Assembly: GCF_030684315.1 (NCBI RefSeq)
Contig: NC_081355.1
Location: forward strand, 82,298,924-82,362,923
Length of the DNA: 64,000 nucleotides
Direction of reading: 5' to 3'
DNA from: Stegostoma tigrinum
Lineage: Eukaryota
Shown here: positions 26,401 to 63,770 of the stretch, piece by piece
How positions within the stretch are numbered: the first letter of the stretch is position 1
Layout of the letters: every line of letters starts with the position of its first letter
Program-made: the position numbers and the translations under genes
Notes under the pieces: model-generated
Database searches by the model: none
Told to the model about the DNA's origin: nothing
Seen by the model: only the letters and a program-made list of their open reading frames with translations

Positions 26401-27402
26401 TCTCTTGGTCACCTAGTCATTATATCTGTATGATGGCCAGAATATCAATGATTTCAATTTGATCAATCACACCAATTTTTGAGTGATTATTTCAACTCTG
26501 AGCTTATTTGGTGGTGGTAACTCACGGGGTCCAGATTGCAGTGGCAATATGCACTTTATATGCATGTGGTCATCGTTCGCTATGGGTGGTGATGGTGTAG
26601 ATTTCAACTTTCTTTCCATCACATTGCTCACCAGGAATCCCTGTTGCTCTTACTGCCTGTTATTGACGTGTTTTGGAAGGGTTTGTAGCTTGTTATTTCA
26701 ACCTAATGGTCCACACTGTGACTGTACCTGCCTTAGCCATAATGTCCTAGAATGGGACCCAAACCTGATACTTTCACAAACAAGAATGCTGTCCACTGTG
26801 CAATAAGACCTTCTTCATGGTCTTATATCCTCTCTGCAAATGCTCTCATACCTCTGGTATCAATCCATTGTTATCTTTGGTATTGTGTTTTCTATTTTAG
26901 CCTTGATCTAATCATAATTCCTCAGCAGAACCATTATCTTAGGCCATCTTTGTCATTGGTACCTACATGGACTATGACAGCTGGATCATTCCCTCTCCTG
27001 CTCCACGTTCTTCCAGTCCCAAGACAATGCCTGTAACACTGAAATTGCGCAGGCATCACAACGTTTAGGACTCACATTTTGCAGTGCAGAAAACAATTTC
27101 TATCCATCTAACTTTGCTGCCACTGGCTACAACAACATCCCTTTGTATTTGCCCATGTGCCATGGTGTTGTGGTCAGTTTGTTCTTCTTCCCTTGAGACC
27201 CTGCTCTCATTCAGACAAACTGAAAGAACTTTAAACCTTTTGGACAAATGGAAAGCCTGAGTCTCATCCAGTGCTATGATCTGAAGCTCCATACTTGCTT
27301 CACTCATAGTCACATAGTTCCTGTTGCTGATCACAGACAAAATCTGACATATCTAGCTTAAAGTTTATGACTACCCCCTGAAACAAGATATCCTCTCTGA
27401 TA

Positions 27403-27578
27403 ACGCAGTGTGGAGCTAGAGGAACACAGCAGACCAGGCAGCATCAGAGGAGCAGGAATGCTGACAGTTTGGATAAGAACCCTCGGCAGCTTTCCTGCTC
27501 TTCTGATGCTGCCTGGCCTGCTGTGTTCCTCCAGCTCCACACCTTGTTACCTTAGGCTCCAGTATTGGCAGTTCTTAC
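27403..27578. mobile_element. Palindromic PLE pLTR mini-element, family 1
   Basis: Inverted arms gtggagct-gaggaacacagcag-ccaggcagcatcaga; TSD tatcct(c/g)tctgata (27389-27402 / 27579-27592). Confidence 0.8.
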
Positions 27579-36265: not shown

Positions 36266-36283
36266 GTAATGTAACCAACAATT

Positions 36284-36412
36284 TCTGAAGAAGGGTCTTG
36301 ACACGAAATGTTAAACTTTCCTGCTCCTCTGATGCTGCTTGGCCTGCTGTGTTCATCCAGCTTCACACTGTGTTATCTCAGATTCTCCAGCATCGGCAGT
36401 TCCTACTATCTC
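36284..36412 (+). mobile_element. Solo PLE hammerhead mini-insertion (129 bp)
   Basis: Starts tCTGAAGAagggtcttgacacGAAA; perfect 14-bp TSD tgtaaccaacaatt (36270-36283 / 36413-36426). Confidence 0.88.
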
Positions 36413-36559
36413 TGTAACCAACAATTCATTGACAATAGATAATAGCATGTACGTCCTGTTTGCCACATTTACTTCCGTACTTTGATTTTGTAATTCAGGT
36501 CATGCACTTTCAAATCAGTGGCACTGCAGTTGTGTTGTGATACCCATGTATTACCTAAC

Positions 36560-36900
36560 ATGTTGTTTCCCTGTTTGTGAACACTGACATTAAACAAGGC
36601 TGTGTTACTGCAACACTTGTCCTGCTGCAATGTTGTGCACACGCGGACAGCAAATCACCCATAGGCATGGAGATAGTCTGCAGAACAGATAGGAAACATT
36701 TCAATCGAACCCATTCTACCATCATAACCACTATAACATCAGCCTTGGAGTTTCAATATACAGAAGATACATGCATGTGCACACACTCATGAGGAAATTG
36801 TGTTTCAAGTCATTGCTGACTCCTTCTCTAAAGCACATTAGAAAATGGACCTAAGTCTTAAACACCCTGAAAACTAAATATTCTTTGAACTGACTCCCAC
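36560..36900 (+). mobile_element. RTE-clade LINE RT relic
   Basis: NTDIKQGCV...CRTDRKHFN...LEFQYTEDTC resembles the RTE motifs GVKQGCV...YRTDGKLFN...ELQYADD. Confidence 0.65.
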
Positions 36901-37109
36901 AGCAAACTGGAGTAGAAGCAAACCATCCTTAACCTCAAAGGCATGCCTTAGATGAAGATGAAGGTCTAGTGTGTGCTTTTTATCCTCTCCTTTACACATA
37001 CCTTTCCATCCTTCTCAGACTATGTATTTTGAGGAAAACTGAACTGATTCATTTTGCTAAAGAAAGGAAGAAAAATAGAAATAACGAAGAAAAGAATCTA
37101 TTCTCCTTA

Positions 37110-37800
37110 CAACATACATACATACAACATACAAAAAGACAGCACAGAACAGGCCCTTCGGCCCTCATTGTTTCGCCGACATCCTTCCTCTCGCAAGGAG
37201 ACCAAAATCGATGGCAGTATTCCAAAAGCAGCCGAATCAATGTCCTATATGGCTGCTAAGTGATCTCCCAACTCCAATCCTCAATGCACTGACCGAGGAG
37301 GCGGGGATGAGTGGAGGAACTAGTCTTGGGATGAGGCGGACGGGTGGGGAGATTTTGAGGGTGGCAAAGTCCATATTGAGGCCATTGAGTTGGAAGCTCC
37401 CGAGGCGGAATATGAGGTGCTGCTCCTCCAGTTTCTGGGTGGTGTGGTTGTGACACTGGAAGAGGCCCAGGATGGACATGTCGTTCAGGGAGTGGGAGGG
37501 GGAGTTGAAGTGATGCAATGATTTGGATATGAAAATAGAAGGTGTGGTTAGTAAGTTTCCCAATGATTGAAGGTGTAGTAGCCAGCCAAGAAGGTCACCT
37601 CAGAATACAATGGGACATTGACAAGGGCCAATAAACTGAGGAGTGGCAGATGGAGTCGAGGTTAGATAAATGTGAGGTGCTACATTTTGGAAAGACAAAT
37701 CAGGGCAGCACGTTTACACTGAAGGTTGTGGGGAGTGTTGCTTAATAAAGAGACGCTGGAGTGCAGTTTCGTAGTTCCATCAAAGTACAGCCACCGGTAG
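37110..37800. mobile_element. Composite of a CR1 tail (-), a PLE GIY-YIG fragment (-, about 37295-37512) and a CR1 RT fragment (+)
   Basis: HFNSPSHSLNDMSILGL...LIFRLGSFQLNGLNMDF on -; DMKIEGVVSKF and KCEVLHFG on +. Confidence 0.7.
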
Positions 37801-39214
37801 AATACATTTTCAAGTTGTCATTTTTTTTTGGCAAGATTTGAGCTCTGAGGTTGAGTTCAAACATCTTAACTCGGAAAAAGCTGGCTTCACCAGATATTTC
37901 TCAGTTTCCATTTCCCCTAAGTTGCTTGTTTTCACCAGCGTAACTCGCCTCTTCAGCCATTCTTCCTCCTGCTTTACTTGTGAAACAATTTCTTCAGCCT
38001 GGTTTCTTTCTGGCAGGACCTGTCTCCTCATGTAGGCCCAGGCTGCTTGCTGCTAATGTCCTGTCCTCATCTAACCCGAGCTCTCTCATACCACATGTGT
38101 CCTTGACCCCAGGCTCTGATACACTCCATGTACAACTTACCTCCCACACTGGTCACTCCTGCGACTGTTCCCCAGTTTACTGGCTAATTCCTTTTTTAAA
38201 CTCTAGGGAAATTATTTCATTTTTAGAAGACATTATTAGTTTACCAGGGATGTTCAATGGCTATATTAAGCATCTTGTCTATTTTCGTTTAACTGTACCT
38301 CTGGGAAAAGGCAGGGCTCAGAAGCTTATTCCTGAGATCAATGGCCAAATGGGAAAAGAGGGCAGATTTTCCCCAAAGCACCAGGAAAATTCAGTCACAA
38401 AGGTGCTGTGATCTCTGAAGAGTTCACTGTCCAGTTTCAAGCTGGACCTCTCTTGTGCTTGCTGCTGATAGGTTCATGATTAAACCTATCAGGAGCAACT
38501 CTGAGATGGAACTAGCTGGTGATCAGTGGGGCAGTGGAAGGTACATGGTGATGGTTGAAAGTAGTTAAGCCTATGAGCTTTATGTTTGCAGAACCAGGGC
38601 CAGAGAAGTGGGACCAGGGTCAGAGATATAGCCTAGATTAGAGAAGTGCAACCAAGGCTGGGCAAGTCCAAGTTACTGGTCCAGGCAGAGAGAGAAGCAA
38701 AGGAGGAGACTACAGAGGCAGAGGTTGGGGGGCGCGGTCAGGGTGAGGCTGTAGGTGTTGCTGAGAAGGAAATCGGGAAAGGCTGAATGTATCAGGGAGC
38801 GGGAGGAGGGAAAAGGATGGCTGGAGAGGTGAAGGCAGAATATGGGTAAGAGAGAGATTCTATGGGTCAGGGCAGAAGATGGATAAAAGTGGTGGTTGCA
38901 GGGGCGTGGGTGGAAGAGAGACAGATGGAGGCTGAGCGGTAAGATCACTGAGGTTGCAAGGGGGTGAGCAAAGGAGGTGGTAAAGTTGGTGGTAGATGAA
39001 GGCTGCAAAGGGCAAAGTGAGAGGGAAGCTACAAACTCAGGTTGTGAGGACAGTCAGTCTTAAAAAAAAGTGAATAATTTTAAACCTATTAATAAAAGAA
39101 TACTCAGCTCACTAGGAGCCTGTAAAACTGGAAATCCCTGAGATAATGAACTTCTTGAAAATAAATGTGAAATCTCAAGCTCAAGGCAGCATACTTTCCA
39201 AAACCTTTTCCAAG

Positions 39215-39480
39215 GTAAGCGGAGAAAAATATGAAAAAGACATGAGGAGCAGTTTTTTTTTAAAACAGAGAGTGGTTCGCATGTGGAATGAACTTCCAGA
39301 GAAACTGGTGGATACAAGTGCAGTTACAACATTTAAAAGCCATTTAGATAAGTACATGGATAAGAAGCTTTGAAGGGATATGGGCCAAGCACAGGCACAC
39401 GGGCCTGGTTTAGTTTGTGATCATGGTCGACATGGACTGATTGGACCGAAGGGTCTGTTTCAGTGCTGTATGACTCTGAC
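39215..39480 (+). mobile_element. CR1 3' tail
   Basis: FFLKQRVVRMWNELP...FKSHLDKYM, followed by a tail. Confidence 0.75.
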
Positions 39481-39749
39481 TACTATGTAGAGGCAAGAAA
39501 AGTAATGGTTGCTATTGTACTGTGTCAACTGTTAAATTTAAATCCGAGATTGAGATCTGAGATGCAGTAAAAAGCATAATAACTGGCTCGTTAAAATTTT
39601 GCAGCTTTGTGCCAATATGTAATGGAAATTCATTTGCTATGACCTCATGAGTCTGTGTGTAGTCTATTGTAATGGCCTCTTGTTTATAGAAATGTGCACA
39701 GACGGTTGGTAAACTATTGTGGATTTTGATGAAAAAGTATTCTTCTAGG

Positions 39750-40040
39750 AAAGGGTGATCAGCCTGAGGTCATGGCTCACATTGGTACCAATGACTTAGG
39801 TCGGGGAATGGGGATGAGGTCCTGAAAGCAGATATCAGGGAGCTAAATCGAACAATGAATGGCAGGACTGCTAAAGCAATCATGTCAGGATTACTACCAG
39901 TCGTGTGCACTGATGAGCATAAAAATGAGAATTTAAAAATTGAACCTGTGACTGAAAAGCTGGTACAGAAGGGTTGTCATCAGGTTTTTGGGACATTGGG
40001 ACTCTTCTAAAAAAAGATGGAATCTGTACAAGCCAATCGA
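39750..40040 (+). mobile_element. CR1 ORF1 SGNH/esterase relic
   Basis: KGDQPEVMAHIGTNDLG motif. Confidence 0.6.
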
Positions 40041-40952
40041 GCTACAAGTCAACCAGACCAACAGCAACACTTACCACAGCAACAACATTCCCCACAAAAC
40101 CAATAGCATCTGTGAACCAGCAGATCGGATGAACGGCAAATACTTGTACACATACCATTACAAACCATGAGCATTTTAAACATTGTGTGCAATGCATGTG
40201 TGGGGACAGAAAAAATTGGTACAGTGTAGAACAAAATTTTTTTTTCTTTTAATGAAGATGGGGTTGTTTGTATAAATGGCTTTGTACACTTCCCACGTCC
40301 ATGTGACCTCTGATGTCAGTAAATGTTAGGAAAGGTACTAGGCAGTAGCCATTTTACTCACTGCCTGGAACATTCCTTTTGCCAGGGCCTGCATGTGGGA
40401 TGAAGTGATCACTGATCGCAGTACCCTGAATTCCAGAACAGCACAGAAGGCACTAGTCCAGGGACTCCTGTCCAATCATCAGTGGTCACTGCTCCCTAGA
40501 CTGGGTGACCCAACTCTGGGAGGCAAGACATCCTGCCTCAGGAGGGCAGTGGCCTCAAACTCAGACAAATAAGCTGCTGAACCTGTAAAACAGAGTCATT
40601 CAGACAGAAGGAAGCAATGGTTACGGCCACAGCCTCCACACTCAATCCCAGACTAAGCTGCAGCTCTGCAACATTTGTTTTTCTTGAGATCGAAGTCATC
40701 TACTTGAGGTAATTTGAGGGCCTTGATCCTGGTTAATGATAGACTTAATTTACAAGTATAAGTTAGCCATTCTTTTGTAATTTTGGGTTAAAAATAACAC
40801 AAAAATAATTGTCACTTAATTTTGACTCAGTGATAGTAAATAGTTCATGATAGTCATAAAGATTTGATAAGAAAATTTGATAAATATGGGAATATATTAA
40901 TTAATAATGTATTGAAACTCTAAAAATCCTGTTCTTTGTTTTACTTTAATAG

Positions 40953-41021
40953 GGGGAGCAAGGCCCTTTAGGACCACCAGGGCCAAGAGGTCCAACAGGA
41001 GAAGGTCTACCTGGTGCAAAG
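40953..41021 (+). CDS. COL28A1: Collagen XXVIII-like exon (GEQGPLGPPGPRGPTGEGLPGAK)
   Basis: ttactttaatAG / GTacag; 69 bp, phase 0. Confidence 0.85.
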
Positions 41022-42092
41022 GTACAGAATTAAACAACATTCTTTTACTTACATAATGTCATTCCAGCACTAGGAGAGCATGAGTTACGCTATCTAGAAT
41101 AGCTGAGAATGTACACTCACACCCCTACCCTCGATCCCTCAATTCCACAAGGGCATGTAGTAAGGGACACTTTCAATTCTGATGAACATTTTAAGAGATT
41201 GAAAATTTGTGTGACCATCTTGCAAATTACCTAGATCCTCTCTGATCAAATGCTTTCAAGTTTTATTGGGAGTCATATTCTGGTAATGCTAACGTGCTGT
41301 TATATTTTGTTCTCTTTCCTCATCTAATTTTATGTTTGTTGTTGATCTAATTGGAATTGTCACACATTAGAATTGTTAGATAGGCAAAAATGATTAGGAT
41401 TTGTTGAAGTTATAGCCAACTGTCCCTTACAAAGTTTGAAGCAAATGAGTCTATAAGAACTTATATTAGTGATATATAATGCAATATTGATACTAATAAG
41501 ACGTATTATATAGAAATGTAGGGAAGTTACAGCACAGAGGCAAACCGTTCAGTCCCAACATCTCATATCAACAAACAGCCTCTTTTAATCACTTTTACCA
41601 ATCCATATCCATTCAACCCAAGTTCCCAATTCCTTCATCTACCCAATAAACTTAATCTTGAAGTTTGACACAGTTTCTGCCTCACCCACTAGTCCTGCAA
41701 GTAAATTCCACAATCTGACATTCGCCTATGTAAGGAGCTATCTCTGGTCCTTTATTCTAAATTTCCTAGAAAATGGATCGTTTCTCTGGCCCCTCATTCT
41801 TGACCTCTCAATCACGGGAAGCTGTCTACTGATATGCTTTTGCATACCAATGTCCTTCAGGAACTTCCTTCCCTTTTACTTTCTTATGACCACACCCTTC
41901 TTCAGATTTCCCCCATTTGCCGTATTTTCACAGCCCCCTGTGACATTTCCATTTTGACTCCAACTAACCAGTCCTCAGAAAAGGTTTCAGCTTCATCTCA
42001 CTCTGCTCTACCTCAATATATTTTGAGTGCAACATGATAATGTGGAATCCAACATAGCACATAATACTCTAACTGAGGTCTTATTAATGCTT

Positions 42093-42380
42093 GGGTGGCA
42101 TGGTAGCTCAGTGGTTAGCACTGCTGCCTCACAGCGCCATGGGCCAGGGTTCAGTTTTATTCTCAGGCAACTGTCTGTGTGGAGTTTGCACATTCTTCCT
42201 GCGTCTGCATGGGTTTCCTCTTGGTGCTCTGGTTTCCTCCGATTGTCCAAAGATGTGCAGGCTAGGTCAACTGGCCATGCTAAATTGCCTGTAGTGTTCA
42301 GGGATATGTAGATTAGGGGTGTGGGATGCTGTGAGAGTGGGGGTGGGCTGAAGGGCCTGTTTCCACACTGTAGGGAGTCT
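42093..42380 (+). mobile_element. HE1/V-SINE-like tRNA-derived SINE
   Basis: ggtagctcagtggttagcactgctgcctcacagcgcc head; ctgtgtggagtttgcacattct...tccaaagatgtgcagg core. Confidence 0.85.
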
Positions 42381-42707
42381 AAGTTATCTCTTACGATCTT
42401 TATTATCTCTGGGCTTTTATGCATTTTAAGATAAACTAAAAACACTGAAGTGCTGATACTAATGTCGAATCAATCTGAATTGCAACCCACCACGTCCAAT
42501 TCCCCCACCATCTTACACCCAAGGAACTCTGCTGTGCCTGAGTATTCAGTCTAATGCCATTCAGGAAGATAATGTCAGCAGGAAGAAACGAGCAGCTGAA
42601 ATATTTGCCCTCTACTTCACCCTAATATTAAGTTGTTGGTATGTCAAAGGAAGCCAGCAGCTCTGCAGTGCTTTTCTGAGCTATTTAAATAAACGTTCCA
42701 CTTTCAT

Positions 42708-42880
42708 TAGAGAGAAATAATTGGTAGTGGCTTAACCTGAGGGTCACTACACCCCAGGCAATAGGCAAAGCTGAGAAGGTGGGTCTTCATTGTAGTCTCA
42801 GCTGCTATGAAAATTGAACTCACAATGTTGGCAGCATGCTGTCTGATAAATAGGATGGTTAACCACCCGCGTTAACTGGC
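42708..42880 (-). mobile_element. tRNA-derived SINE relic (same family as 60995-61212)
   Basis: Shared motifs agagag-ggtagt-ttaacct...tctcagct...attgaactca with the 61 kb copy. Confidence 0.5.
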
Positions 42881-43057
42881 CCCCTATCAATTTAAAGAAC
42901 AATTTCAGAAATTATAAAGGGATTACTATCAAATTGTGTTAATTTCTATTTTCTGCTCGTTTTTGAGCTTATGGCGTTGAAGAGCATGACATTACCTTTT
43001 AGTAACCAACGAATTTAAGTAAAGACATATTCAGTAACTAAGTATATTAAATGACAG

Positions 43058-43126
43058 GGAGACCGAGGATTTCCAGGAGAAAGGGGCCCAACAGGATTAG
43101 GGGAAAGAGGACCTCCAGGTCCAAAA
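43058..43126 (+). CDS. COL28A1: Collagen XXVIII-like exon (GDRGFPGERGPTGLGERGPPGPK)
   Basis: atgacAG acceptor with a poor pyrimidine tract; strong GTaagt donor; 69 bp, phase 0. Confidence 0.82.
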
Positions 43127-45937
43127 GTAAGTATGCTACAATATGTGTAATACTTGGTGGTCATTAGCTTTTGTTTTTACTGCATTTTTAGGAACTGTGT
43201 GCCCTTTCTAAAAAAAAGAATCATGAGATACTCAATTATCATCAATGTGCCAGATTTGTTGTAAATTGCTCAAATTGAGGAGAAGAGCGTGACTGACTCT
43301 AACAAGTACAATACCATCGTTGCCATTTAGAAGAATTTTGCTGGTGCGATATTATTCAACCCTTTGTTGTCTAGGAATCTTTGCTGACATGAAAGGTGGT
43401 CAAATGGTGCCCAGAAGTCAACTTTTTTTCCGGGCAGATTGTGGTTAATTGATACTAACATGTTGCATGGACTAGACCTAATTTATTTGAGGTGACAAAT
43501 TGCCTAAAAAATACCAAAGGGTAGATTGACAGATATTATTTCCTCTGGTTGGAAGTTAGAATTGGGGCTGAATGACATACTGTCAGAATTAGAGACAAAT
43601 CTTTTAGGATGATGTTAGGAAGCACTTTGTTGAACTATGTGTGGTGGAAATCTGGAAGTGGGAGATACAATATGATTGACCCTGGGTTTACTTTCTTTGG
43701 TCCTGTGAGCTGCTAATTCCAATGGAAACATATTTCTTTGAACATGACAACATGCTGCATAAAAAAATCTGCACTTTAGATAAATAATGATGACATACAA
43801 CTTGGTTTAAGGTGCAATAGTGAAAGTTTATTTCTTCAGAAGAAATAAATGAAAGAATGAGCACAACCCACAGATCCTGTTTGCCTATCTGTGCACCCCT
43901 CTCATGCAGGGGTCACACCGACCAATTTTACATTTTGATGGCCATATCTGAGTTCTGTTGAATTTTATGAAGACTTCTTCAGCATGAGCCCTAGCCCTAA
44001 AGCAGTAACAGTGAAAACTTTTGGCTCTCACCCTATCTTACCAAACTTATGCTTTCATTACCTACTCTGCCCTATGGCATCTTTCACATCCAATTTCTGC
44101 CCCGTCTTACCACCCAGCATTCCTGGAATGATTCGTCAATCAGCAGATATCTACTGAAACACCAGCATCTCTTGTGCATGTGCCATATTTGAAAGGCTGC
44201 TGTGCACCAGAACAAGTGTTGGTCCTCACTGGCAATGTCATGGCACAGTTGCCACAAAACCACACTGGCCATGGCACACAGCCAGCATAGCTGAAACTCG
44301 CTCACAGATACAACCTGAGTCTCTCACCCTAGTCACTGTTTAACCACCAGGTCACATGGTTTACCTGTCCATTACCGCATACCATCTAAATCAGCTAGCC
44401 TCTCCTCAATGGCCACTCAGCATCACAGCTTGTCATTATCCAACAGGTGAGCATCACATTGAGGCATGCAATCAGACAATTTCAAACAAAAACATGAGTT
44501 TTTATGTGCAGAAAGGAAAGGGGAACAGAAATGAAGCTAATAGAGACTGAACAGCACCCCACGATACCAACCAGATTGAAGCATCATGACCAAAGATTGT
44601 ATTACAGTCAACAATTGTCTGCTGTACCCAGATATCTTCAATTGGGACTGGGTGTCAATGGGGTTCAGTTGTGTACAGCGCCTGTCATAGCTAAGATCTG
44701 TCATGGACAATGTCAGCTTTCTCTTCTTCAATGTCCTCATCTCCTCACAATACTATTTCCCTTCAACTAATTTCACTCACTCAGCACATTGCACCACTGC
44801 CTCCTCCAAAAGTGCACAGCATAACATGCCAGGATGATGAAGCATGCTCTGTCTGGCGCACACTACGTGCCCATTTGTCTGCACTAAACAACGCATTAAA
44901 ACAATAACAGTGAAAATCTTTGGCTCTGTTTGAAGCACCAACATGTAAACAAGCATGGAACAGCATGTTTAGAAAAATGGGAATCAGTATTAATAAGGCA
45001 AGTTGTAGTGTAACGAAATGGTTAACAAATGTTAATCCCCGTCAATTGTCATCTCACTCCTACCTGGTGAGATCCTCGCTGCACAGCCTGTGTAAAACAT
45101 AAAAGTTAGTGAGCTGGTCTCAATATCAAAATGGGCTTTGCTGCACTTCTAATCCAATTCTGCCACACATTACTTTTACTCTGCCTTCAGGTTTATGCAA
45201 CATCTCCAAATTTACAACCTGACACCTTTATTAAAGGCCTTTTCAGTACAACGAAAATAGGGAAATGACGTACAATGGCTAAGCAATTAGCTGATATGTT
45301 GCCAAGGGAAAATAAGAACATGCAACATACACATGTGTATTGGTACCATTCTCCACTAGTAACGGTGGTGAGTGACTTACAAGCAAAGACGATAATGCGT
45401 TTAAGTTTGTACTACTGTTAGAAAAATCAATTGTAAAGGTAGGGAAATATCCTTGTGTGCGTCTGATTGGCTGAGGGAAACAGGCATGGTAGTGTTTTGC
45501 CAATTGTGTCATTGCAGTACGATGTTAAAACAATTAGCCTCTTCTCTGAAAAATATCTTCAAGAATATAATTTTCTCACCCAAGAACATGACCTCTTTAG
45601 AACAGAAACTGATGAACATAAGGGAAAAGACTGATGTTAGACATGAATGCATTTCAGCTACAAGCCTTGAAACTACTGTTAGCAATATTATCAGTCAAAT
45701 TAATTGCTGGAGTTCAATCTATTCATTGGTTTAACTGAGCTGATAAACTTTACACGGGTCTATATCCATATTACAAGAGTGGACAAAGTGATGACTTTTG
45801 GATATGTTGAATGTTCTCTTGTTAACAACCCACATAGAACTTATGGATTCAGCTTTTCAGTTCATCAATATGTATATTTCAGAAAATCTATTGTGACCTT
45901 GAATCTACATTTTTAATTGTCATTAATTATCCTTCAG

Positions 45938-46009
45938 GGTGATCCAGGAACACCAGGAGCAGCAGCTACTCCTGGAATCCCTGGTGATGCTGGATCAAAG
46001 GGAGCAAAG
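45938..46009 (+). CDS. COL28A1: Collagen XXVIII-like exon (GDPGTPGAAATPGIPGDAGSKGAK)
   Basis: atccttcAG / GTactg; 72 bp, phase 0; one Gly position reads Ala. Confidence 0.82.
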
Positions 46010-47714
46010 GTACTGTAAGGACTTTTGGTTCTATTTTGTTTTCCAAGCCTCTTATTCCAGAAGCCAATGATTCTTACTGGAGTTAGGTTCTACAGAAACT
46101 GATAGATTTTCACCCATGTGAATTCATCCAAGTGTCTGTAATATGTTTATGCACTTTGCTGCTTGCTGCCTAGTGAGGACAAGCAAATGAACCTGGTCTT
46201 TTTCTTAGCCATTCATTGCTCTGCTTAATTGTCCACTATTATTACCAGTCAGCACTTGGAATGCAGATTTCACTCAGCATGATCTAGTTCCCAGTTACTG
46301 CACACATGGCTTACAGATGGATATCTTTGAGCATACTTTTACAAATGTATCTTTAAAGCCTCTTCTTTTGCATTTCCTAAACATTTCCAGACCCCACTCA
46401 AACATTATAAGTTGAGCAGTGGGATGGTTACTCAGCATGGAGTATGTAGAAAGAATATAGCTTTTTTTTGATGTATAGGACACTGTTTTGTATGTCTCAT
46501 GCTACCGTTCACTGTTATTTGACAGAATGATCAGGTGAAATTATAAAATCAATACTTCATATTTGATATGAAATGCTAGTTCTGCTTAGTAAATCCATGT
46601 TTGATGGTTACATGTTTTCCAATAGGTGGCTTTTCTTAGAATTGAAAGGAGTTACAGTCTAACCCATTGACCATTCACATACAACTTGGGTTGACTCAAC
46701 CCCAAGAAAGAATAAATGATAGTTTTCACAGCTGTTAAAATTTCTAAAGGAAGTGAACTTCAGCATTCATCCTCCTGGAAATGGGTTCATTTCACTCCAC
46801 TGCTTTCCAATTTGGCAGCACTTTGACAATGTGCTCCTTAGAGAGGATATTTAAATAGAGTGTAGTGAATAGAATATGCTTGTTGTTTCCATGTGATAGG
46901 GAAGGCATTTTTGTGGAATAGAACCACAATACAGATAAAGCTCTTCACTGCATCTGGTCACTGTGTTACCTGCTCTGAGAATATTTGGTGCTGTACTTTA
47001 CATAATCAATTCCAATGTGGTGAAGCTTCTCCCTCTTGTATGTTGGCAGTATGAAACTCTGATTTATTGTATGACCAAATGGTACTTTTTGCACACCTGT
47101 GTGTAATTATTTCCCTCACAGTCACCCTCTGTTCATGTGTATACGTTTCACTCTGGCTGGGTTAGATTTTTGCCAGGTTGGGTTGGCTCAGAGCCCTTTA
47201 AAAATGGCAGACTGAATCCAATTCCTGGGGTTTCCAATTTTCAGGAGTGCCTTTTAAAAGGTGGCTTGGGGTTATAGACTTTTACACAACACTCCTGACC
47301 TGGCCAACAAGGAAAGGCATGATTTACTCCATTGCAGTTTTGGTTGTGTCCAACCAGCTATTTAGAGAGTTCATCGCATCTCAAGGCATCATGAACCATA
47401 GCCTGCACAAGGGAATCTTTTGAAAAGCATGTTGACCAGATGATGAGCACCATTTAAATGTTTCACATAACCTCTCTTTTATTTTGTAAAAACTTTCTTA
47501 AATAAAGTAATATAATACTCTTACTGTGAATAGTTCCCTGTAAGAAAGCATTCACTTTTGTCACAGTCCTAACACAAAGATTCAAATTTAAGGTGTAAAG
47601 CTTTTCTCACCATAGCTGTTAAAAATCAGATCATTTTACTCCAAGCTACATCTACTTTAGATATGTCCTTTTTACGAATATTGAGTCGAATACATTTCCC
47701 CTTCATTTCTGCAG

Positions 47715-47783
47715 GGGGAACATGGAAGTCCAGGGTTACCTGGTCCACCAGGGCTTGGCATTAAAGGAGATCCAGGAAAACCG
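47715..47783 (+). CDS. COL28A1: Collagen XXVIII-like exon (GEHGSPGLPGPPGLGIKGDPGKP)
   Basis: catttctgcAG / GTgagc; 69 bp, phase 0. Confidence 0.85.
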
Positions 47784-48970
47784 GTGAGCTTTTTTTCTGT
47801 TTGAATTTTGTTTTCTCTTGTGGGATTTAAAAATGCCAGACAAGGAGACCATTTTTCTGATTGACTGCCATGATTTCAATGTGCTAGACCAGGGCCTGTT
47901 ATGAATTCAAATTTTGTCAGTTCTCCTCATAATTAGCAGCACACTGAGACTGCCCTTTATGCCAGCAGCTTCATTTGCACAAACTCTTTCTATTGGGTGA
48001 ATTTTGTGTATGCACTGTGATTGTACCCTCAATTATAGCTGGCAATAAAGGCCGACTATTTCCTTGTCTTCAAAATATAATCTTTTGTTTAAAGCTAAAC
48101 TGCTGGAATTTTATTGGATGCAACTACTTTTCTGAAAATGGGTACAGCCTCTAAAGCCCTTCTACTCCTGAGTTTTTCGGAATCAAGAGATAATGGTGTT
48201 GATATGTAACTTCAGTTGTCTGTCTTCATTCATTTTCACCCATTGAGCCATGTTTGCAACCCTACACAGATAACTGCCAATTGAGGCTAAAGTTCGTTCG
48301 GGAAGTGATGATGAAACCATGCCATTTGCTGTAATCTGTACAATGGTCACCTTTTTCCAGCATTAGTCAATTTAACAATTGTCTTCAATCTCCATGTCTC
48401 TGGGCAATTCTTGGCTGCTTTTGACATTTCTTCAATATCAGGATTGCACCGATGAATCGAACAAGAACTAATACTTTGTCTACCAGACCAGCCAACTTTG
48501 TTAATTTTTCCATGGAAAAGTAAGATTGAAGTAACAGAGCAATGAACTACTGTTTTTTTTTCCCATGGAATATTGGTGTCACTCACATCTAGGGACACCA
48601 TTTAATTCTATTCACAGACCACAAAGGACTAAATTCAGAACTGACAAAATATCTCATCTGAGGCAAGAAAGAGCAAGAATTAAACTTAACCAACTTAATT
48701 TGGATAAAACCAATGTGCATGGAAGAATGTGTAATCTAATGTGCAGTATATCTGGTCTCCCAGTTGATCAGCAACACTGAAGCATTCACCTTAATTGGTA
48801 AATCACCAGACAGCAATCATGATTATTTTATTCTGAGATTTGTTTAAAGGGCAAGAGAAACTTGAAGGATGGCTCATGAGGACCCTGACTATTGACAATG
48901 TCAAAATTGCAGATAAAATTTGGCCTGTGCATTTACAAGAATAGTAGTAAAACAAACTGCTAACGTTTTG

Positions 48971-49664
48971 CCCTCCCAGTCGCACAATAAACAACTGCAC
49001 CTCCCAGTCGCAAACCATTTCCACTCCCCCTCCCATTCTTTAGATGACATGTCCATCATGGGCCTCCTGCAGTGCCTCAATGATGCCACCCGAAGGTTGC
49101 AGGAACAGCAACTCATATTCCGCTTGGGAACCCTGCAGCCCAATGGTATCAATGTGGACTTTACCAGCTTCAAAATCTCCCCTTCCCCCACCGCATCCCA
49201 AAACCAGTCCAGCTCGTCCCCTCCCCCCACTGCACCACACAACCAGCCCAGCTCTTCCCCTCCACCCACTGCACCCCAAAACCAGTCCAACCTGTCTCTG
49301 CTTCCCTAACCTGTTCTTCCTCTCACCCATCCCTTCCTCCCACCCCAAGCCGCACCTCCATCTCCTACCTACTAACCTCATCCCACCTCCTTGACCTGTC
49401 TGTCTTCCTTGGACTGACCTATCCCCTCCTTACCTCCCCACCTATACTCTCCTCTCCACCTATCTTCTTTTCTCTCCATCTTCGGTCAGCCTCCCCCTCT
49501 CTCCCTATTTATTCCAGAACCCTCACCCCATCCCCCTCTCTGATGAAGGGTCTAGGCCCGAAATGTCAGCTTTTGTGCTCCTGAGATGCTGCTTGGCCTG
49601 CTGTGTTCATCCAGCCTCACATTTTATTATCTTGGATTCTCCAGCATCTGCAGTTCCCATTATC
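48971..49664 (+). mobile_element. Young PLE 3' fragment
   Basis: ORF 48920..49309 (HLPVANHFHSPSHSLDDMSIMGL); hammerhead 49540-49567; perfect 15-bp TSD actgctaacgttttg (48956-48970 / 49665-49679). Confidence 0.92.
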
Positions 49665-50353
49665 ACTGCTAACGTTTTGTGGTAATGTTTCAGAGGCCTT
49701 GGTAGATCACGGGGCAGACCTTACAGTACAATCCTGCCAGTGCCTCAAGATTATCATTATACACTGAAGGTTCTACAGTTTGCTTCTATTCTTCCACACC
49801 TGGATAGATTTAGATGGCAAAAGTCAGGTACAAGAGCATATGAGGATACTGATGTTAATCCAAAACTTATTGCTGCAGGAGAACTGTTGCAAAGCTGAAG
49901 GATACTGATAGATTAAGTATTCCCTGAAATGCCTCTGCCATCCATTCTACTAATATTCTGTCCCTCAAACAGTAGACACATTACAAGACAACATAATATT
50001 TTGATGTTGTTGGATATAGCATGGTTCTTCAAGAGAGCCATCTAGTCTTCAAACAGTGCTATGACATCCTTTACCTGAATAGGTAGGTAGAACTCAGTTT
50101 AACTTTTAATATGAATTTGACATCTTTGGCAATGAATTACTTCCTCCGTAATACATTGAAATGTTGGTATAACAATTTGGAGATTTTATTGATATAGCCT
50201 TCAAAGCGTTTTGTTATAATATTGCTGCAAAAGTAGATTATGTATAAAAAGAAACAACTCCCAAAGGTACAGAAGCCATTTGAAATGTTTGTCTGAATGG
50301 CTGTGAATAGGGAGACCAAATAGATTACATAGCAGGTTATACATGTTTTCAAG

Positions 50354-50449
50354 AGATAGCATGATGTAGAGCTGGATGAACACAGCAGCCAAGCAGCATC
50401 AGAGGAGCAGGAAGGCTGACGTTTCAGATTGAGACCCTACTTCAGAAAT
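50354..50449 (-). mobile_element. Solo PLE hammerhead mini-insertion (about 96 bp, tail-less)
   Basis: Ends at ...ctacttcagaaat (core on the - strand); TSD tacatgttttcaag (50340-50353 / 50454-50467). Confidence 0.8.
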
Positions 50450-53400
50450 AGGTTACATGTTTTCAAGTTGTGTTTCTGCAAATTACGTTCACTAGGATGG
50501 TTTGTGGCTGAAATGAAGGCAGAAACAGCTGAAAGAACAATCAGCCGCCACTCTTAAGTTGCCAACAGAGAAATAGAATTGAAATGCTACCAGAAGCTGA
50601 AATAACAAGACAGCAAAGGTCTGAAGATATATCTCTCAGTCAGACTTTCAGGCTTCACTGAAAATGTGCTCAGCTTCTGTCTGTAGCTTGAATAAGGATA
50701 TCATTAGTCAGGGCTGTGGGGGAATGCCCAAATAAAAACTAAATAAAATTCTGGAAATAATCAGCATGTCTGAAAACAGTGGTAGAAAAGGACATAGAGA
50801 TAATGGCAGAATTTAATGTTCCCCCAGAGCTGAGTTGCCCAGCCGAAATGTGTAACGGGGTGGAAATTCTAACACCTTCCTGACCCACCTCACCTCAATT
50901 AAATTCAGAATGGAAAGGATCAAGGACGGTGCTCCCCCTCAGATACCATTTGAGGCCTTGAGGTAACCACTTAAGGGCCTTGTCCCACCATCACTGCTGG
51001 TATACTCATGGTCAGCAACGCCACACTGTGTGGGCAACATGCCAGCTAAACACTAGTCAATGTGCCTATGGCCTGGTGTGGAGGAAAATCTGTCCTTCTT
51101 GGGCATCCCGGGTCTATGGAGTGCCATCCCAGAACCAAGGGCTACCAATATGGCATGCCCTTGCCTACCTCTTAAAGGAAACCCCAAGGCCCCACCTTCA
51201 CTTGGCCCTTGCTGACCGACCCCAATGATTATGCCTGTCCTACCTTTCCTTCAGGGATCCAGCAATGACCCTGCTGCAAAGTACCTTACACTTACCCCCG
51301 TGCAGTACCAGTAGCATCTGCCACTGATGCAAAGAAAAGAGCAAAACTGAGTCATAAGGAGGGCTGGATTTTACGTTCGATATTCTGTTAGTTTGAAGTA
51401 GAGCAGGAAAGTGAAACCCAGCGACTGACTTTATTGCCACCTGGCTACTCATGCCCCGAACTGCCTGAAATTTTATGGGGGCTGGGAAGATGCCAAGGTT
51501 CCTACACCCCCACCCCTCCACTATCCCTCCCTTTAAGGCTCTTACATCACCAATTACTGGCCACTTAGAGATCTTATCTTATTTTGTGCGGTATTGTACA
51601 TGCAGCAGGAGCCGCTGCACACCAGGAAGAATGTCCAGCAGCTTTAACTGCCTGGACTGGTGTAATCTGCAGAGCTTGTCATGCAAGGGCTGACCCCCTT
51701 GTGGTACTAAAAAGCCCTATGGAACCTCACCATCTCGCTTTCAGATCTACACCTATTTAACCATTCCACCACTACCCCTACCCTCTTGAACCCAGAGCAC
51801 ACCTCCCTCACTGAGACCCCAGGCCCTGGGCCTACCTGGGATCTTTGGCATACTGGAATTCCCTGTGTTCCTGGCATCAGTTACCACTCCCACCTGGCAG
51901 TTCAGGGCATTCAATAGGCTAACAGCTCTCTAAGACAGGATGTCCTCCTAAGATAGAGGCAAAATGCAATTTGTACTGCTCCCAATGATACATTCCCCAA
52001 AGCATCTTCAGCTGCAAGTGCAAGAACCATTGCACCCTGTGAAATCCAACCCATTGAGTAATTTTCAGCACAGAAGGCTATCCCGCCCATCAAGTCAATG
52101 ACAACTCACAGTGGAATAACCCAGTTAGTTCCACTCCCATAGACAATCGACCCCAGTTACCAGGATGTGTTACTCCATTCATGTTCCTATCAAATGTCCT
52201 TTTAAAATCATTGTTTCTGCTTTCACTTCTACCAAGGGCAGCACAGTCTAGGTATTATCACACTGAATAATAAAAATCCTCTTCATATACTTACTGTACC
52301 TCATGTCCAAAACCTTATGTCTACGTCACCTAGTGGCATTATTAGCTTGTGGCTCATAGATTTAGGTTTATGTTTTATTGTCATGAGTACATGAGTACAA
52401 TGACAAGTATACAAAGTCACCATTCTTTGGCACCATTTTATGATGTAAAACACAGGATTAACAATTGAAGCAGAAATAAAACGAACAACCAAAAGATAAG
52501 GAAAAGTCGAGATTATGCCCAGTCTCTGCCAGGAGTCCTCACCATCAGAAAAGCAAAGCCACAAAGCCCATCCCTCAGTCTGTGAGCTCTCAGGATGCTC
52601 CGAGTCCCCATGTGCCACCGCAGCTGGAATGCCATCACCTCCACCGTCAGGTATCGATGCCGAGTCATGGCCTAGAGCCATGAGCACCGTCACCGCTGGA
52701 ACAGTGTCACCATTCTTCGGCATCATCTTGCCTCCACTGATGTCCACCATGAGTCTGCACTGGGCAGATCTTAGCAATGCAGCCTCCGCTGAAGCAGCTA
52801 GGACCCGGACTGGGCTCTGAAATGCAGGAAATGTGCAACAAAAACAAATAAAAAGCTTGAAATATAGAATATATCTATATCTGTATGAAATATAGCTATG
52901 TGAGATAGTGAAGAGAAGGGAAGAGTTAATATCTTGGACATAGTCCCTTGACCGGAATTAAAAACTAAAAGACAAGAAACTAATTTAATGGGATTGTGGC
53001 GGGGGTAGGGTTAAGTGTAAGACACGGACTACAGATATCCCAGTCACAGAGAGAAAATTCAAGAATTTAATGACCTACAAACCACATAATAGACAAGTGG
53101 AGAATTGTTAAATGGTATAAAAGATCATCTCAGTGAGGCAATGAAAATGCATTGAAAAGACAAAAGTACAAACAGCTAGGAACATGAAAAGGCATGGGAG
53201 AGGCATGAAGAGAAAAAAGGACATAGTTAAACAAAAGGAGAAAAAACGAGTCAGAGACACAGTCTGGAATGGAACCAAGAAAATGAAACATGTTTCAGGC
53301 TCCCCTTCCTGCCTTGTTTTCAGTATTTGAGTTGATGTTTCATAGTGGAATAGTCAAAAGGTGCTGCTTGACAACTGCCCTGTGATCATTTAAATGTTAT

Positions 53401-53660
53401 AATGATGCTGGAAGCCTGAGATTTGAACAATTTTGTAGCTCACACAGGGTGAAAGTGTTTTTATTGAAAATGTTGTGCCCTTAAAGGACTTTCAGTGGAT
53501 CAGAAAGAAGAGTGCTTCCCATCAATTCTCTCCTACACACTTATTTCCTTTGCACTGAACTTTCCAAGCAAAGAATTCCCCATTGGAATAGGCAGCTGTC
53601 CCCCATGGGTCAGATCAAAATCCCAGCATTAATTTGAAGGATCAAAGACAGAGAATTTAA

Positions 53661-54013
53661 GGGCAGCGCGGTGGCTCAGTGGCTAGCACTGCTGCCTCAC
53701 AGTGCCAGAGACCCGGCTTTGATTCTAGCCTCAGATGACTGTCTGAGTGGAGTTTGCACATTCTCCCTGTGTCTGTGTAGTTTTCCTCTGGGTGCTGTGG
53801 TTTCCTCCGACAATCCAAAGATGTGCAGGTTAGGTAGATTGGCCATGCTAAATTAGCCATAATGTTCAGGGAGGTGCAGGCTAGGTGGACTAGCCTTGGG
53901 AATTGCAGCCTTACTGGAATAGGGTGGGGGTTATGTCTGGGTGGGATCCCCTTCAGAGAATTGGTATGGGCTTGATGGGCCAAATGGCTGCTACCACACT
54001 TAGGGATTCTATG
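53661..54013 (+). mobile_element. HE1/V-SINE-like tRNA-derived SINE
   Basis: gggcagcgcggtggctcagtggctagcactgctgcctcacag head, V-type core, tail gggattctatga. Confidence 0.85.
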
Positions 54014-54327
54014 AGACCTACCGCTCCTTCAATCCTGCTGATGAGGTGTTGGCTAACTTGTTACTTCTGCTTTGGCCTCCTCTGAAGTACTCCCCGTCAA
54101 TTGGGAATCCAGCTCATCAGTCAAGCTAAGATCTAGGAAAGAAAACTCAAACTTCTGGGTCCTGTGACTGAGCCTTCCTGCTCAAATAAACATGCCCTGT
54201 CAATATCTGGGTCTTTTGATGACAGTTAGGGCTTTCTACCAAAATGAATGAGTTTAATTTCAAAACAAACAGGAATTTCTTTGGACTCATTTTAAAGCAT
54301 GTTCTCAAACTGGAAAACATGTTGGGA

Positions 54328-54447
54328 CAGTAAGAACTGCAGATGATGGAATCAGAGATAACACAATGTGGAGCTGGAAGAATGCACCAGGCCAGGCAGC
54401 ATCAGAGGAGCAGGAAAGTTGACGTTTCGGGGTGGGACCCTTCTTCA
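54328..54447 (-). mobile_element. Solo PLE hammerhead mini-insertion (120 bp)
   Basis: Minus strand begins CTGAAGAagggtcccaccccGAAAcgtc; TSD gaaaac(a/g)tgttggga (54313-54327 / 54448-54462). Confidence 0.85.
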
Positions 54448-54519
54448 GAAAACGTGTTGGGATATTCCGTTTAATGATAATGAATCCTGCACAGCCAATG
54501 GAACTCTGAAAGTAGATTT

Positions 54520-54610
54520 ATAGAACATAGAACATAGAACATTACAGCACAGTACAGGCCCTTCGGCCCTCAATGTTGTGCTGACCTGTCATACCAATCT
54601 GAAGCCCATT
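54520..54610 (-). mobile_element. Short CR1 tail (same family as 35645-36142)
   Basis: Near-identical (tagaaca)n ttacagcacagtacaggccc... sequence. Confidence 0.8.
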
Positions 54611-54925
54611 TCCTGAATTTGTAAGGCTGAGAAACAAAAATGGTCTTCGTGGCAGCTGTCTTTAGCAAGTCCGACAAGAGAACCCAGCTGCATGGTGGAT
54701 GCATGATGTGACAGGTTTGTCCTCACAACCTACTAAGCTGATATAACAGGAACGTTTGAAGGGCACTTTGTGAAATACAAATGTAGCCATTTCAGCAAGG
54801 AGTGACAACAAAGTTGAGAAATGCTTATTCTGATTTCAGCTGAGCCGGTAGGTAAATATTCTAATCTGAACTTGTATTTGTAACTGAAAAAGTGCATCAA
54901 TCTGGTCTGTCTTGCTATTTTTCAG

Positions 54926-54997
54926 GGGGAGCCTGGTAAAAGGGGACCCAGTGGCTTTTTTGGACATCCTGGACCAACTGGACCTGCTGGCGCTAAG
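54926..54997 (+). CDS. COL28A1: Collagen XXVIII-like exon (GEPGKRGPSGFFGHPGPTGPAGAK)
   Basis: ctatttttcAG / GTgatt; 72 bp, phase 0, perfect Gly-X-Y. Confidence 0.85.
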
Positions 54998-55079
54998 GTG
55001 ATTTCCTTTACTTTGAATTTATCCTTAATCATTTGAAAAACAAATGAAATTAATATACGGTTACAATAATATCCACCTT

Positions 55080-55445
55080 AATGGGACTAAACAGGGTAAA
55101 CACAGGAAGGATGTTCCTGATGAGCAGGGAGTCCAGAGCCAGGGATCACAATTTAAGGAAATGGGTTATGGTCTGTAGGACTGAGATGAGGATAAATTTC
55201 TTCACCCAAAGGGTGGTGAGCCTATGGAATTCACTGGCACAGAAAGCAGCTGAGGCCAAAACAATGAATATTTTCATGAAGGACTTAGATATAGGTCTTA
55301 AGCCTAAAGGGGTCAAAGATTATATGAAAAAAGCAGGAACTGGGGACTGAGGTGGATGATCAGCCCTGGTCGTGTTTAATGGTCAAACAGACCAAAAGGG
55401 TTGAATGGCCTATTCCTGCTTCTATTTTCTGTGTTTCTATATTCT
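55080..55445 (+). mobile_element. CR1 3' fragment
   Basis: ORF 55081..55350 (NFFTQRVVSLWNSL) followed by a tail. Confidence 0.75.
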
Positions 55446-56119
55446 ATTTTAGTTAGCTGATTATATATTAAATTCCCTTTAGGAATAATAGTTGCATCAT
55501 TGACTTAAATGGCAAGAAAATAATTTGCAATATTCACCTGAATTTTCATTATGTGACCTGATGGGTTTGGTTCCACCTAAGAGCATGAAGTTAGATAATG
55601 ATTTTGGGATTATTTTTAATTTTTGAAAAGGTATTAAAAGATAAGGTGTTAATTGTGACCACTGTTGTGCTTCATTTCCATGATTGGTCATTGAACATAT
55701 GCTGTTGGCATAAAACATCAGAAGGCCATATTTGAATATCAGGTGGGGAGGATTATGCACATCTGCAGCTCAGCTGATGCATCCTCATTGACAAAAGAAA
55801 ATGTAGGATTGCCTAACTGGTGTACCATATTCTGACTTGAGAGCAGAGAAGCAAGAAGCATATCCCGCAATGTTCTTTAGTTTAGCTTACAGTTCTCTCT
55901 GCCTATTAACACTATCATTGCAGCAGTAGTTGCCATGCTGATTAGTTGATGAATGGAGTTTGGGCAGGGAAAAGAACAAAGATGAACACGTACTCTTACG
56001 TAGCTCTGGGAAACTTAATCATAGAATTGAAGAATGATACTGAAAGGAGCAGTTATCATATCTGTGATGTCTAAAGAACAATTGAAGTTATTCCCTGAAA
56101 GAAACTCACTGGGAAGTTT

Positions 56120-56325
56120 CAGAGGTAGTAGGAACAGCAGATGCTGGAGAATCTGAGATAACAAGATGTAGAACTGGATGAACACAGCAGGCCAAGCAGC
56201 ATCAGAGGAGCAGGAAGACTGACGTTTGGTTCAAAAGAAGGTTCTAGGCCCAAAACATCAGCCTTCCTGCTCCTATGATGCTGCTTGGCCTGCTGTGTTC
56301 ATCCAGCTCTACATCTTGTTATCTA
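56120..56325. mobile_element. Palindromic PLE pLTR mini-element, family 1
   Basis: Inverted arms meet within the hammerhead region (about 56220-56260); tail on the left arm; imperfect TSD actgggaagttt / actgagaaggtt. Confidence 0.85.
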
Positions 56326-57046
56326 ACTGAGAAGGTTTTTTAGTTGTATTAAAGGGAGTTGAAATCAAAGATAACGTTTTAGCACTTCTGCTTAAATACA
56401 GAGCTAATGTGCTACCCATTGCCATGGAGATGCGGGTAGAGGAAGCCATTTTGAAATAAGGTTACAGGCTTCCCTAAATATCCAGGAATGTTTCTACAGT
56501 TGCAGTTTTTTCTTGTGCTATCAGTAATCAATTGAAACGTAGAGCAAGAGATCAGCAAGGCCTGCACTTTAAGCAGAGAAAATGTCGTTTTTATCATTTA
56601 CCACACAGACGGCAGATAGGAACTCACATTCATGTTGAAGACTAAGTTCATGAAGAGTTAAGGAAAGCTGGAAGATTTGCCTATCAAGTGCAACTGTCAC
56701 ATTGAGAAGTGGTTCTGGGATGAAAAGTTACTCACACAGGAAATAAAAAGGAAGCAAAAAATAGGAGTCTGGGAGCAACTGTGAATTGGGTGTGACAGTT
56801 TTGTAATTCCATCAAGAGTGTGCTATGTGTTAAGTAAAAAAGCTATGTTTAAAGAATGCTATGAAATATATCCACAAAAATAGAATAATGTTTCATGGTT
56901 AGTTTTTCTATTCACTTGTTACAATGAAGGTTTAAGATGTGGTACGTCAACATTTTATTCTTTCAACTATGAAACAGAAGTTCAAATTTCACTTTAAAAG
57001 TAATCAGCCTCAATGGAGATTTGTAAGAAAATGGATCTTGCAGGAA

Positions 57047-57181
57047 TGACCGTCTGATGAAGGGTCTAAGCCCGAAACGTCAGCTTTTGTGCTCCCGAGA
57101 TGCTGCTTGGCCTGCTGTGTTCATCCAGCCTCACATTTTATTATCTTGGAATTCTCCAGCATCTGCAGTTCCCATTATCTC
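57047..57181 (+). mobile_element. Solo PLE hammerhead mini-insertion (135 bp)
   Basis: CTGATGAagggtctaagcccGAAAcgtc at 57054-57081; perfect 14-bp TSD ggatcttgcaggaa (57033-57046 / 57182-57195). Confidence 0.9.
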
Positions 57182-60433: not shown

Positions 60434-60994
60434 CAGTGAAATGTTACATGGTTTTAAAAAATCACTGAAACTGAAAGAAAATCTAAAACACAATTGTGAG
60501 ACCAGCCTCATATATAGTATAGAAACTTAGGCAATGCCAAGAAGAGAGGAAGAATGATTGGACACTAATAAATTGCAGATGCTGAGAAAAATAAGAAAAT
60601 ACACAATCAGGAGCCATTACATCAGGGGCTCAGCGGAAATTGTGTTAATGTCAAACAAAGTAGCCAAGAAAAGATTAAAAAGATGTGATCATTTATTGTG
60701 GAGTGAGAGGGGAAATGTGGTGATGTGAGTGATTGGGTCGTGCTACTGTGAAGAAGGAGAAGATAAAGGCCCAAGACTGATAGAAAGATTGAGTGGTGAC
60801 AGCTTGGAAAATGAATCGATGACTGACTAGAGCAAGGGAAATCATTCAGCATTGTGTCAACTCCACCTCCCAAAAAAATGGGTAAAGCTGAAAGAAGAAC
60901 AAAAGAAGAGTTCATAAAAGGAAGGCCTTGCCAATTTAGCTTACTCATTTTCTTTAATAGGATAACAAAGGATTTTGATAGTGCTAAGGCAGTA

Positions 60995-63320: not shown

Positions 63321-63548
63321 AACTGTATGTGCAGAGAGTATAATACCAGAAAATGAAAATATTTTATGTATTACTATACAAGCCAACAGTTAAACCATAA
63401 TACAGTGGAATACTGTGGACAGTTTAGGCCTCTCACCTAAGAAAAGGTATAATGGCATTGGAGACAATCCAGAAGACATTCTCTCTGATACCAGATATGA
63501 CTTATAACATCAATCAATGCAAATATCAAGGAACACCATAATTTTGCA

Positions 63549-63770
63549 GATAACAAAGTGTGGAGCTAGAGGAACACAGCAGGTCAGGCAGCATCAGTGG
63601 AACAGGAGAGCTGACGTTTCAGGTCGGGACCCTTATTCAGAAATTTCTGAAGAAAGGTCCCGATCCGAAATGTCAGCTTTCCTGTTCCTCTGATGCTGCC
63701 TGGCCTGCTGTGTTCCTCCATCTCCACACTTTGTTATCTCTGACTCCAGCATTTCCAGTTCTTGCTTTCT
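63549..63770. mobile_element. Palindromic PLE mini-element, family 1, with head-to-head hammerhead motifs
   Basis: Apex ttcagaaa|tttctgaa at 63643/63644; tail on the right arm; degenerate TSD caccataattttgca / cacaataactttgta. Confidence 0.88.

Follow-up and report, generated by a model that had tools for sequence, protein, structure and literature searches.

Short insertions that begin just ahead of a hammerhead ribozyme core were analyzed in a 64,000-nt stretch of the Stegostoma tigrinum genome (NC_081355.1, positions 82,298,924 to 82,362,923; hereafter the window), which lies on contig C2 of this 3.2-Gb genome. Positions are numbered from the C of the core CTGAnGA (+1), and the predicted hammerhead cut falls between +28 and +29. 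Judged from their sequence, all four insertions are copies of the terminal 96-135 bp, the pseudo-long terminal repeat (pseudo-LTR, pLTR), of a Neptune-type Penelope-like element (PLE), each enclosed by a target-site duplication (TSD). The 5' ends of such copies are common throughout the tail of the element, peak at -4/-5 and collapse further upstream. We consider it probable (about 0.6) that the insertions are run-off copies, for which the reverse transcriptase (RT) would prime internally at +96 or +127 and run off a discrete, probably capped RNA 5' end 4-5 bases before the core. An earlier sequence-only reading of the window had proposed a ribozyme-defined non-autonomous retroelement.

Short insertions in the window and their parent element

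Re-reading of the letters confirmed four separate insertions, each with its own TSD of 14-15 bp. Copy 1 (36281..36412, + strand) extends to +127 between perfect 14-bp repeats (36270-36283 / 36413-36426); its 5' end is placed between -4 and -1, because the last ATT of the TSD coincides with the natural ATTT of the element, and its minimal hammerhead (36285-36312, + strand) is partly decayed. Copy 2 (50354..50449, - strand) runs from -4 to about +94 and lacks the 30-nt tail, and its TSD (50454-50467 and 50340-50353) measures 14 bp, or about 17 bp once a 2-nt indel is permitted. Copy 3 (54326..54452, - strand) ends at +125 and has a hammerhead motif at 54448-54421 (- strand); its 15-bp TSD, with one mismatch, overlaps the element, so that the 5' end may lie anywhere from -4 to +1, an end at 54447 being one option inside this overlap. 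Copy 4 (57047..57181, + strand) belongs to the young subfamily and consists of a 6-nt filler followed by -1 to +127, with a perfect 14-bp TSD (57033-57046 / 57182-57195) and a hammerhead motif at 57054-57081 (+ strand). All four 5' ends had been placed 0-7 nt from CTGA(T/A)GA. They do lie close to the core, but copy 2 reads CTGAAGT and gives no motif match there, and three of the four ends are blurred by TSD overlap or filler. The four insertions contain no RNA polymerase III (pol III) A or B box, even with one mismatch allowed, as the sequence-only reading had noted, and no poly(A) signal.

Four such ends within 21 kb had also been considered improbable under random truncation. The genome-wide peak described below is indeed far above chance, but the interval (36284..57181) was picked post hoc; it holds five unpaired copies, four of them short. 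Short copies account for 4 of 16 unpaired copies in the whole window and for 44 of 201 in the full sample, and since these shares are equal, the window is ordinary for this genome. Copy 1 sits 4-18 nt past the splice donor of a 69-nt Gly-X-Y exon (36197-36265), which has one interruption and is preceded by AG and followed by GT; by these letters, the window is probably inside a collagen-like gene.

The parent element is represented by a near-complete copy (L141) with a 627-bp 5' pLTR, an open reading frame (ORF) region and a second hammerhead 3.92 kb further on. Matches to RVT_1 (E=2.4e-5) and then GIY-YIG (E=7e-4), both below the Pfam cut-offs and separated by a frameshift, give L141 the order of endonuclease-positive PLEs, an RT with a C-terminal GIY-YIG. 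Other features of these elements are present as well: the pLTR and partial tandem (L141), the tail, the inverted 5' copy and the TSD. By motif match (CTGAnGA, stem II, GAAA, CGTC) the pLTR carries a minimal type I hammerhead that is predicted to cleave; the Rfam hammerhead model gave no match in the window. In the clade descriptions of PMC8557442, a CX2-5CxxC linker together with two cysteines in GIY-YIG marks Neptune, the linker being common to Nematis. We found the linker as CNRRKCYTC and the cysteines as CIHC..C..YIG. The element carries Neptune-type motifs, an assignment made from motifs and not from an RT tree, and at this level the Neptune RT/GIY-YIG named in the sequence-only reading is matched.

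One 22-nt core pattern of the young subfamily matches exactly at 110,684 places genome-wide. Selenocysteine was considered for a single TGA that recurs in RT matches and was rejected: in the loci read the stop does not keep to a single codon near YxDD, and the TGA was taken as ordinary decay. A pyrimidine tract and AG stand directly ahead of the first ATG (+167) in L141 (3340-3375), and the outer 5' ends of the tandem derivatives L295, L296 and L302 fall at +163 to +165. A 3' splice site or other RNA end near +163..+167 is possible.

A 5' boundary ahead of the hammerhead core

We mapped ends in a position-picked sample comprising ten 100-kb blocks and the window (1.064 Mb). It yielded 331 core and tail matches, of which 130 form 65 head-to-head pairs and 201 are unpaired. 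The unpaired 5' ends lie within the core or tail (45), at 0..-7 (44, with the mode at -4), at -8..-140 (28) or beyond (84). A high-scoring subset retained 188 matches with a score of at least 70 and a 3' end of at least 88 (143 were dropped). There, 25, 0 and 72 solos end 0-8, 9-24 and at least 25 nt upstream, respectively, and 18 in the tail. The corresponding counts for paired arms are 39, 3 and 1, with 30 in the tail; pairs were called only with a gap of at most 80 nt, so long arms cannot appear among them.

Exact patterns of the same design, searched genome-wide, gave 2,924 ends at -4, 49 at -10, 760 at +36 and 2,786 at +29; by eye, 22 of the 49 ends at -10 look like mutated long copies. 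When 100 rows were listed without 5' bias, 35 departed from the element's own upstream sequence in the first 13 nt, including 20 at -4/-5 (by eye), and 65 ran past the boundary. Here and below, listed rows are the first 100 places, on contigs C1-C2. The position of the boundary is constant across subfamilies with differing upstream letters (CTCT, ATTT, TTTT), 32 nt upstream of the predicted ribozyme cut site. In each subfamily, the letters at -4/-5 resemble what we take to be initiator or TCT motifs. The ends thus form a peak at the core instead of decaying smoothly with length, both in the sample and in the genome-wide patterns, and the claim that they are non-random holds. A conserved core next to a diverged pyrimidine tract might produce such a peak by misalignment, and this may inflate the counts among the oldest, low-scoring copies; the peak persists, however, in high-scoring matches, exact patterns and TSD-defined junctions. 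For young copies this artefact is already refuted, and as a general explanation we give it next to no weight.

The junction is also marked by an excess of G. The base before -4 is G in 69, T in 19 and A in 12 of 100 listed rows, where the natural base of the element is C (by eye). Control rows from the -10 pattern have G in 9 of 27 (Fisher p=0.0015 against 69/100). The excess is seen in flank-only rows (17/30, p=6e-4 vs 0.27) and in the ATTT subfamily (43/100 listed rows, p=4e-4), the background frequency of G among non-C bases being 0.26. At two loci (L223 and L264) the G is supplied by neither the element nor the target. At three others (L225, L234 and L236), direct-repeat jumps connect a piece that stops at +54 or +38 with a copy from -4, an extra G standing between them, a pattern that looks like a template jump after run-off. 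Untemplated G is described as the mark of capped L1/SVA templates (PMC4859970).

The 3' ends form clusters close to +96 and +127; those of older, low-scoring copies gather around +77 and +119. In 43 of the 51 pairs in which both arms score at least 30, one arm reaches at least 122 and the other 85-105. This pairing fits two primings, in line with the Anolis Poseidon enzyme, which has two internal RT start sites from which both strands are extended in vitro (PMC11167929).

Proposed run-off from an RNA end and its alternatives

By analogy with the Anolis Poseidon enzyme, we propose that target-primed reverse transcription would begin at the internal sites +96 or +127, and that the boundary would be a physical RNA end produced by a pLTR promoter. 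In Drosophila, the Penelope pLTR contains an internal promoter that lacks a TATA box (PMC2377424). The G would derive from copying of the cap and would either remain as an additional base or pair with a G of the target. Priming on one strand would give a solo copy and priming on two a head-to-head pair, joined and trimmed at microhomologies. Long and tandem copies would come from templates that extend past -4, through read-through, circular RNA or a template jump. Either the mRNA's 5' pLTR or a short transcript of one of the many truncated copies could serve as template; a short pLTR-started RNA may be copied in trans.

The sequence-only reading had offered the ribozyme fold as a programmed RT stop. 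In its structural or sequence-based form, refolding of either template or cDNA once the +1..+30 hairpin has been copied, combined with a weak pyrimidine-rich hybrid, would free the cDNA a few bases further on. A CUGAUG/CGUCAG hairpin over +1..+30 is indeed present in the minimum free energy and centroid structures of the young pLTR, the ends are smeared over 0..-7, and helix I of the hammerhead has its 5' edge close to the boundary. However, coming from +33, the RT has the whole hammerhead copied by the time it reaches -4, the five sequences folded do not exceed shuffles in stability (z -0.08 to 1.08), the boundary stays the same despite different upstream letters, and the G excess is left without a reason. 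Templates read twice speak against it as well. Among 30 loci (25 distinct) with a tail-to-ORF junction, 13 continue past +1 and 12 stop in the tail; on this second pass none of the 13 stops at 0..-8 and one stops at -9 (p=0.004, or 0.03 counting -9, for a 35% stop rate). Taken together, the geometry, the shuffle-like folds, the lack of second-pass stops and the G excess argue for an RNA end over a fold-induced stop, and we regard a programmed stop as unlikely.

Several observations weigh against run-off from a capped end. The ends are smeared over 0..-7 and do not fall on one base, the listings are limited to the first 100 places on C1-C2, and the second-pass set is small, was selected with one pattern and includes tandem derivatives. 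Eight ORF-bearing junction copies start at -51, +74, +106, -261, +9 and -17 or are tandems (two), and none starts at -4/-5, contrary to the prediction of the simplest 'capped mRNA' model. As to the G, the target has one in the same place in 6 distinct TSD-resolved loci and it is clearly extra in only 2-3; since it is mostly common to the target, a nick-site preference would also fit. Many rows with G are head-to-head joins, where the -5 base of the other arm could supply it, and no clearly extra G is seen in any of the four window copies. Finally, R2 junctions made in vitro gain untemplated G and T (PMC13000458), so the junction G need not be cap-derived.

The short copies might also be failed 'strong-stop' DNAs, which we hold as a tentative and rather improbable model. 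A capped RNA starting at -4/-5 would be ended at +28 by cleavage in the downstream pLTR and would have a 32-nt terminal redundancy. The RT would prime in the 5' pLTR, reach the cap and jump to the 3' end, as in retroviral first-strand transfer. About two thirds of the jumps would succeed, as estimated from the listed rows that run past the boundary (65/100), and their repeats would rebuild the pseudo-LTR. If true, this model would give the PLE hammerhead a role and explain pseudo-LTR regeneration, both of which are presented as open questions (PMC2377424, PMC4209133, PMC11167929).

Hammerhead cleavage itself is a poor candidate for setting insertion ends. The main boundary lies 32 nt upstream of the cut, and the young subfamily has no NUH triplet ahead of -4. 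The apparent peak at the cleavage site (2,786 ends at +29) was reduced by controls to palindromic joins: about 67 of 100 listed rows are joins at the AGCT palindrome, and the other 33 or so per 100 correspond to about 920 non-palindromic ends, merely about 1.2 times the +36 control (760). In favor of cleavage, head-to-head joins at AGCT, which starts at the cut site, outnumber those at the equally long ACGT (+24) by 41 to 2 among 50 listed of 1,040. However, ACGT lies inside the predicted +1..+30 hairpin, which could account for its rarity in joins, and in the Anolis experiments described in PMC11167929 no reads started or ended at the cut site. Eighteen AGCT loci (L311-L328) mostly combine one long and one short arm, with a TSD-like repeat in about two thirds. 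Such joins may be a minor class from cleaved RNA, and cleavage accounts for this minor class at most; that it sets the ends in general is very improbable. We are equally doubtful that the boundary is a 3' splice site. The Drosophila Penelope intron, which ends at helix I (PMC4209133), provides a precedent, and in the oldest subfamily a pyrimidine tract is present, as is CAG at -5..-3. Against this, the AG is absent there in young subfamilies, and what precedes the boundary is TSD, host flank or the other arm and in no case a common exon.

A self-propagating SINE-like (short interspersed element) or retrozyme-like element would have its own internal promoter, be recopied in trans and form its own lineages. 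In its favor, the genome would hold about 130,000 solos as extrapolated from 44 per 1.06 Mb, and internal priming would leave nothing of the 3' flanks. No short-only clade is seen in a tree built from 146 tails (73 long copies, 48 paired arms and 25 solos; 97 columns), which is poorly resolved, with one starred branch. Short and long labels change 44 times, where shuffles average 48 and 36 of 300 reach a count as low; for solo and long labels the count is 19, with a shuffle average of 22.5 (11 of 300 as low). The latter signal is weak and tracks subfamily age, because solos are commoner in the older subfamily (18/41 vs 7/57). One solo and several inverted arms are interleaved with young long copies, and two inverted arms do not differ at all from long copies. 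In this tree, short and long copies are mixed in every subfamily. In addition, the pol III A and B boxes of SINEs are missing from the four insertions, and the ends fall at -4/-5, not at +29 as for retrozyme units set by cleavage. A separate family defined by the ribozyme is less likely still than a programmed stop.

Other copies and comparison with known systems

The window contains further copies of the element. Head-to-head pairs occupy 63546..63770 (3' ends at +95 and +126, both arms extending to -4 with a common AT overlap), 56123..56324 (arms +20..+126 and +4..+93; within the 36284..57181 interval), 27394..27582 (+8..+97 and +25..+125) and 20269..20428 (+30..+127 and +28..+97). Older pairs at 12210-12425 and 35456-35632, with 3' ends near +77 and +118, belong to a divergent subfamily whose long copies have CAGTT ahead of the core. 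A long 5'-truncated copy at 24213..25990 (+ strand) retains an RT fragment (YIDD), the endonuclease region, the 3' untranslated region and a hammerhead at 25866. Another (58856..60434, + strand) contains the C-terminal GIY-YIG region and a pLTR end at +125; a related copy on the opposite strand has a pLTR at 57482-57573 and an endonuclease-region ORF at 57716-58735. The 5' end of the long copy forms a near-perfect 169-bp hairpin (58857-59025), which gives false microRNA matches below the Rfam cut-off. All Rfam microRNA matches in the window were rejected as perfect hairpins scoring below the gathering threshold. On its own, CTGAnGA shows no enrichment in the window (53 occurrences, 43.8 expected).

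Internally deleted PLE units, which join about +200..+410 to -43..-290 with a junction of their own in each case, are separate from the solos. They were found at L302-L304 (C1:49657.6-49659.0 kb), L295, L296 and L310, and at C1:104.861 Mb (period 329), C1:140.329 Mb (period 166), C1:110.520 Mb (period 293) and C1:135.852 Mb (period 336). Some occur in tandem, for example (-131..+231), and some arrays end at +93 or +128. These derivatives are retrozyme-like, of a type described before (bioRxiv 10.64898/2026.07.22.740005), and possibly rolling-circle products.

The boundary, sharp and marked by G in thousands of copies, singles out one base at which the template RNA should start. Three matters thereby become directly testable: the start of transcription, whether abortive run-off after internal priming accounts for most insertions, and whether long copies are built by a strand jump. 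In annotation, these very common short repeats belong with PLE ends and should not be entered as a new SINE.

The closest systems are the endonuclease-positive PLEs (Craig et al. 2021, PMC8557442; Arkhipova et al. 2013, PMC3846280), for which 5'-truncated insertions, a pLTR, a 30-40 bp tail and an adjoining inverted copy are described. They share with our copies the RT with C-terminal GIY-YIG, the partial tandem, the TSD, an optional 30-nt tail at one end, head-to-head arms, junction palindromes and solo pLTRs. They differ in variable truncation and in the derivation of junction palindromes from self-priming on an antisense template, and their passages on insertion structure report neither a fixed 5' boundary at the hammerhead edge nor a G excess. 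The open-licence literature, supplements excluded (Fig. S2 of PMC11167929 may bear on this), yielded no report of such a fixed boundary. The Anolis Poseidon element PAc (Frangieh et al. 2024, PMC11167929) likewise has two internal starts that bracket the tail, extension of both strands and dispensable cleavage; it belongs to another clade, Poseidon, and for genomic copies its main text gives a map of the 3' (start) ends and none of the 5' ends. PLE minimal hammerheads (Cervera and De la Pena 2014, PMC4209133) have the same minimal type I motif with a palindromic stem III and occur mainly as single motifs, regarded there as likely connected with truncated PLEs; cleavage and circles are proposed in that account, which does not map insertion ends. 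Non-LTR retrozymes (Li et al. 2026, bioRxiv 10.64898/2026.07.22.740005) are also pLTR-derived, hammerhead-bearing and non-coding, and monomers exist, but the class is defined in that preprint by at least two tandem hammerhead units, whereas the four solos are TSD-flanked monomers; the tandem derivatives of this genome (L295, L296, L302) stand apart from them. Full-length L1/SVA copies and L1 twin priming (PMC4859970) offer parallels in the extra G at a fixed 5' end and in inverted arms from two primers; unlike them, the PLE would prime internally here, with a run-off product of merely 100-130 nt or so. Truncated PLE ends, tails, inverted arms, solo pLTRs and scattered single hammerheads are all known already, and the short insertions are a general feature of this known element class, not a new class.

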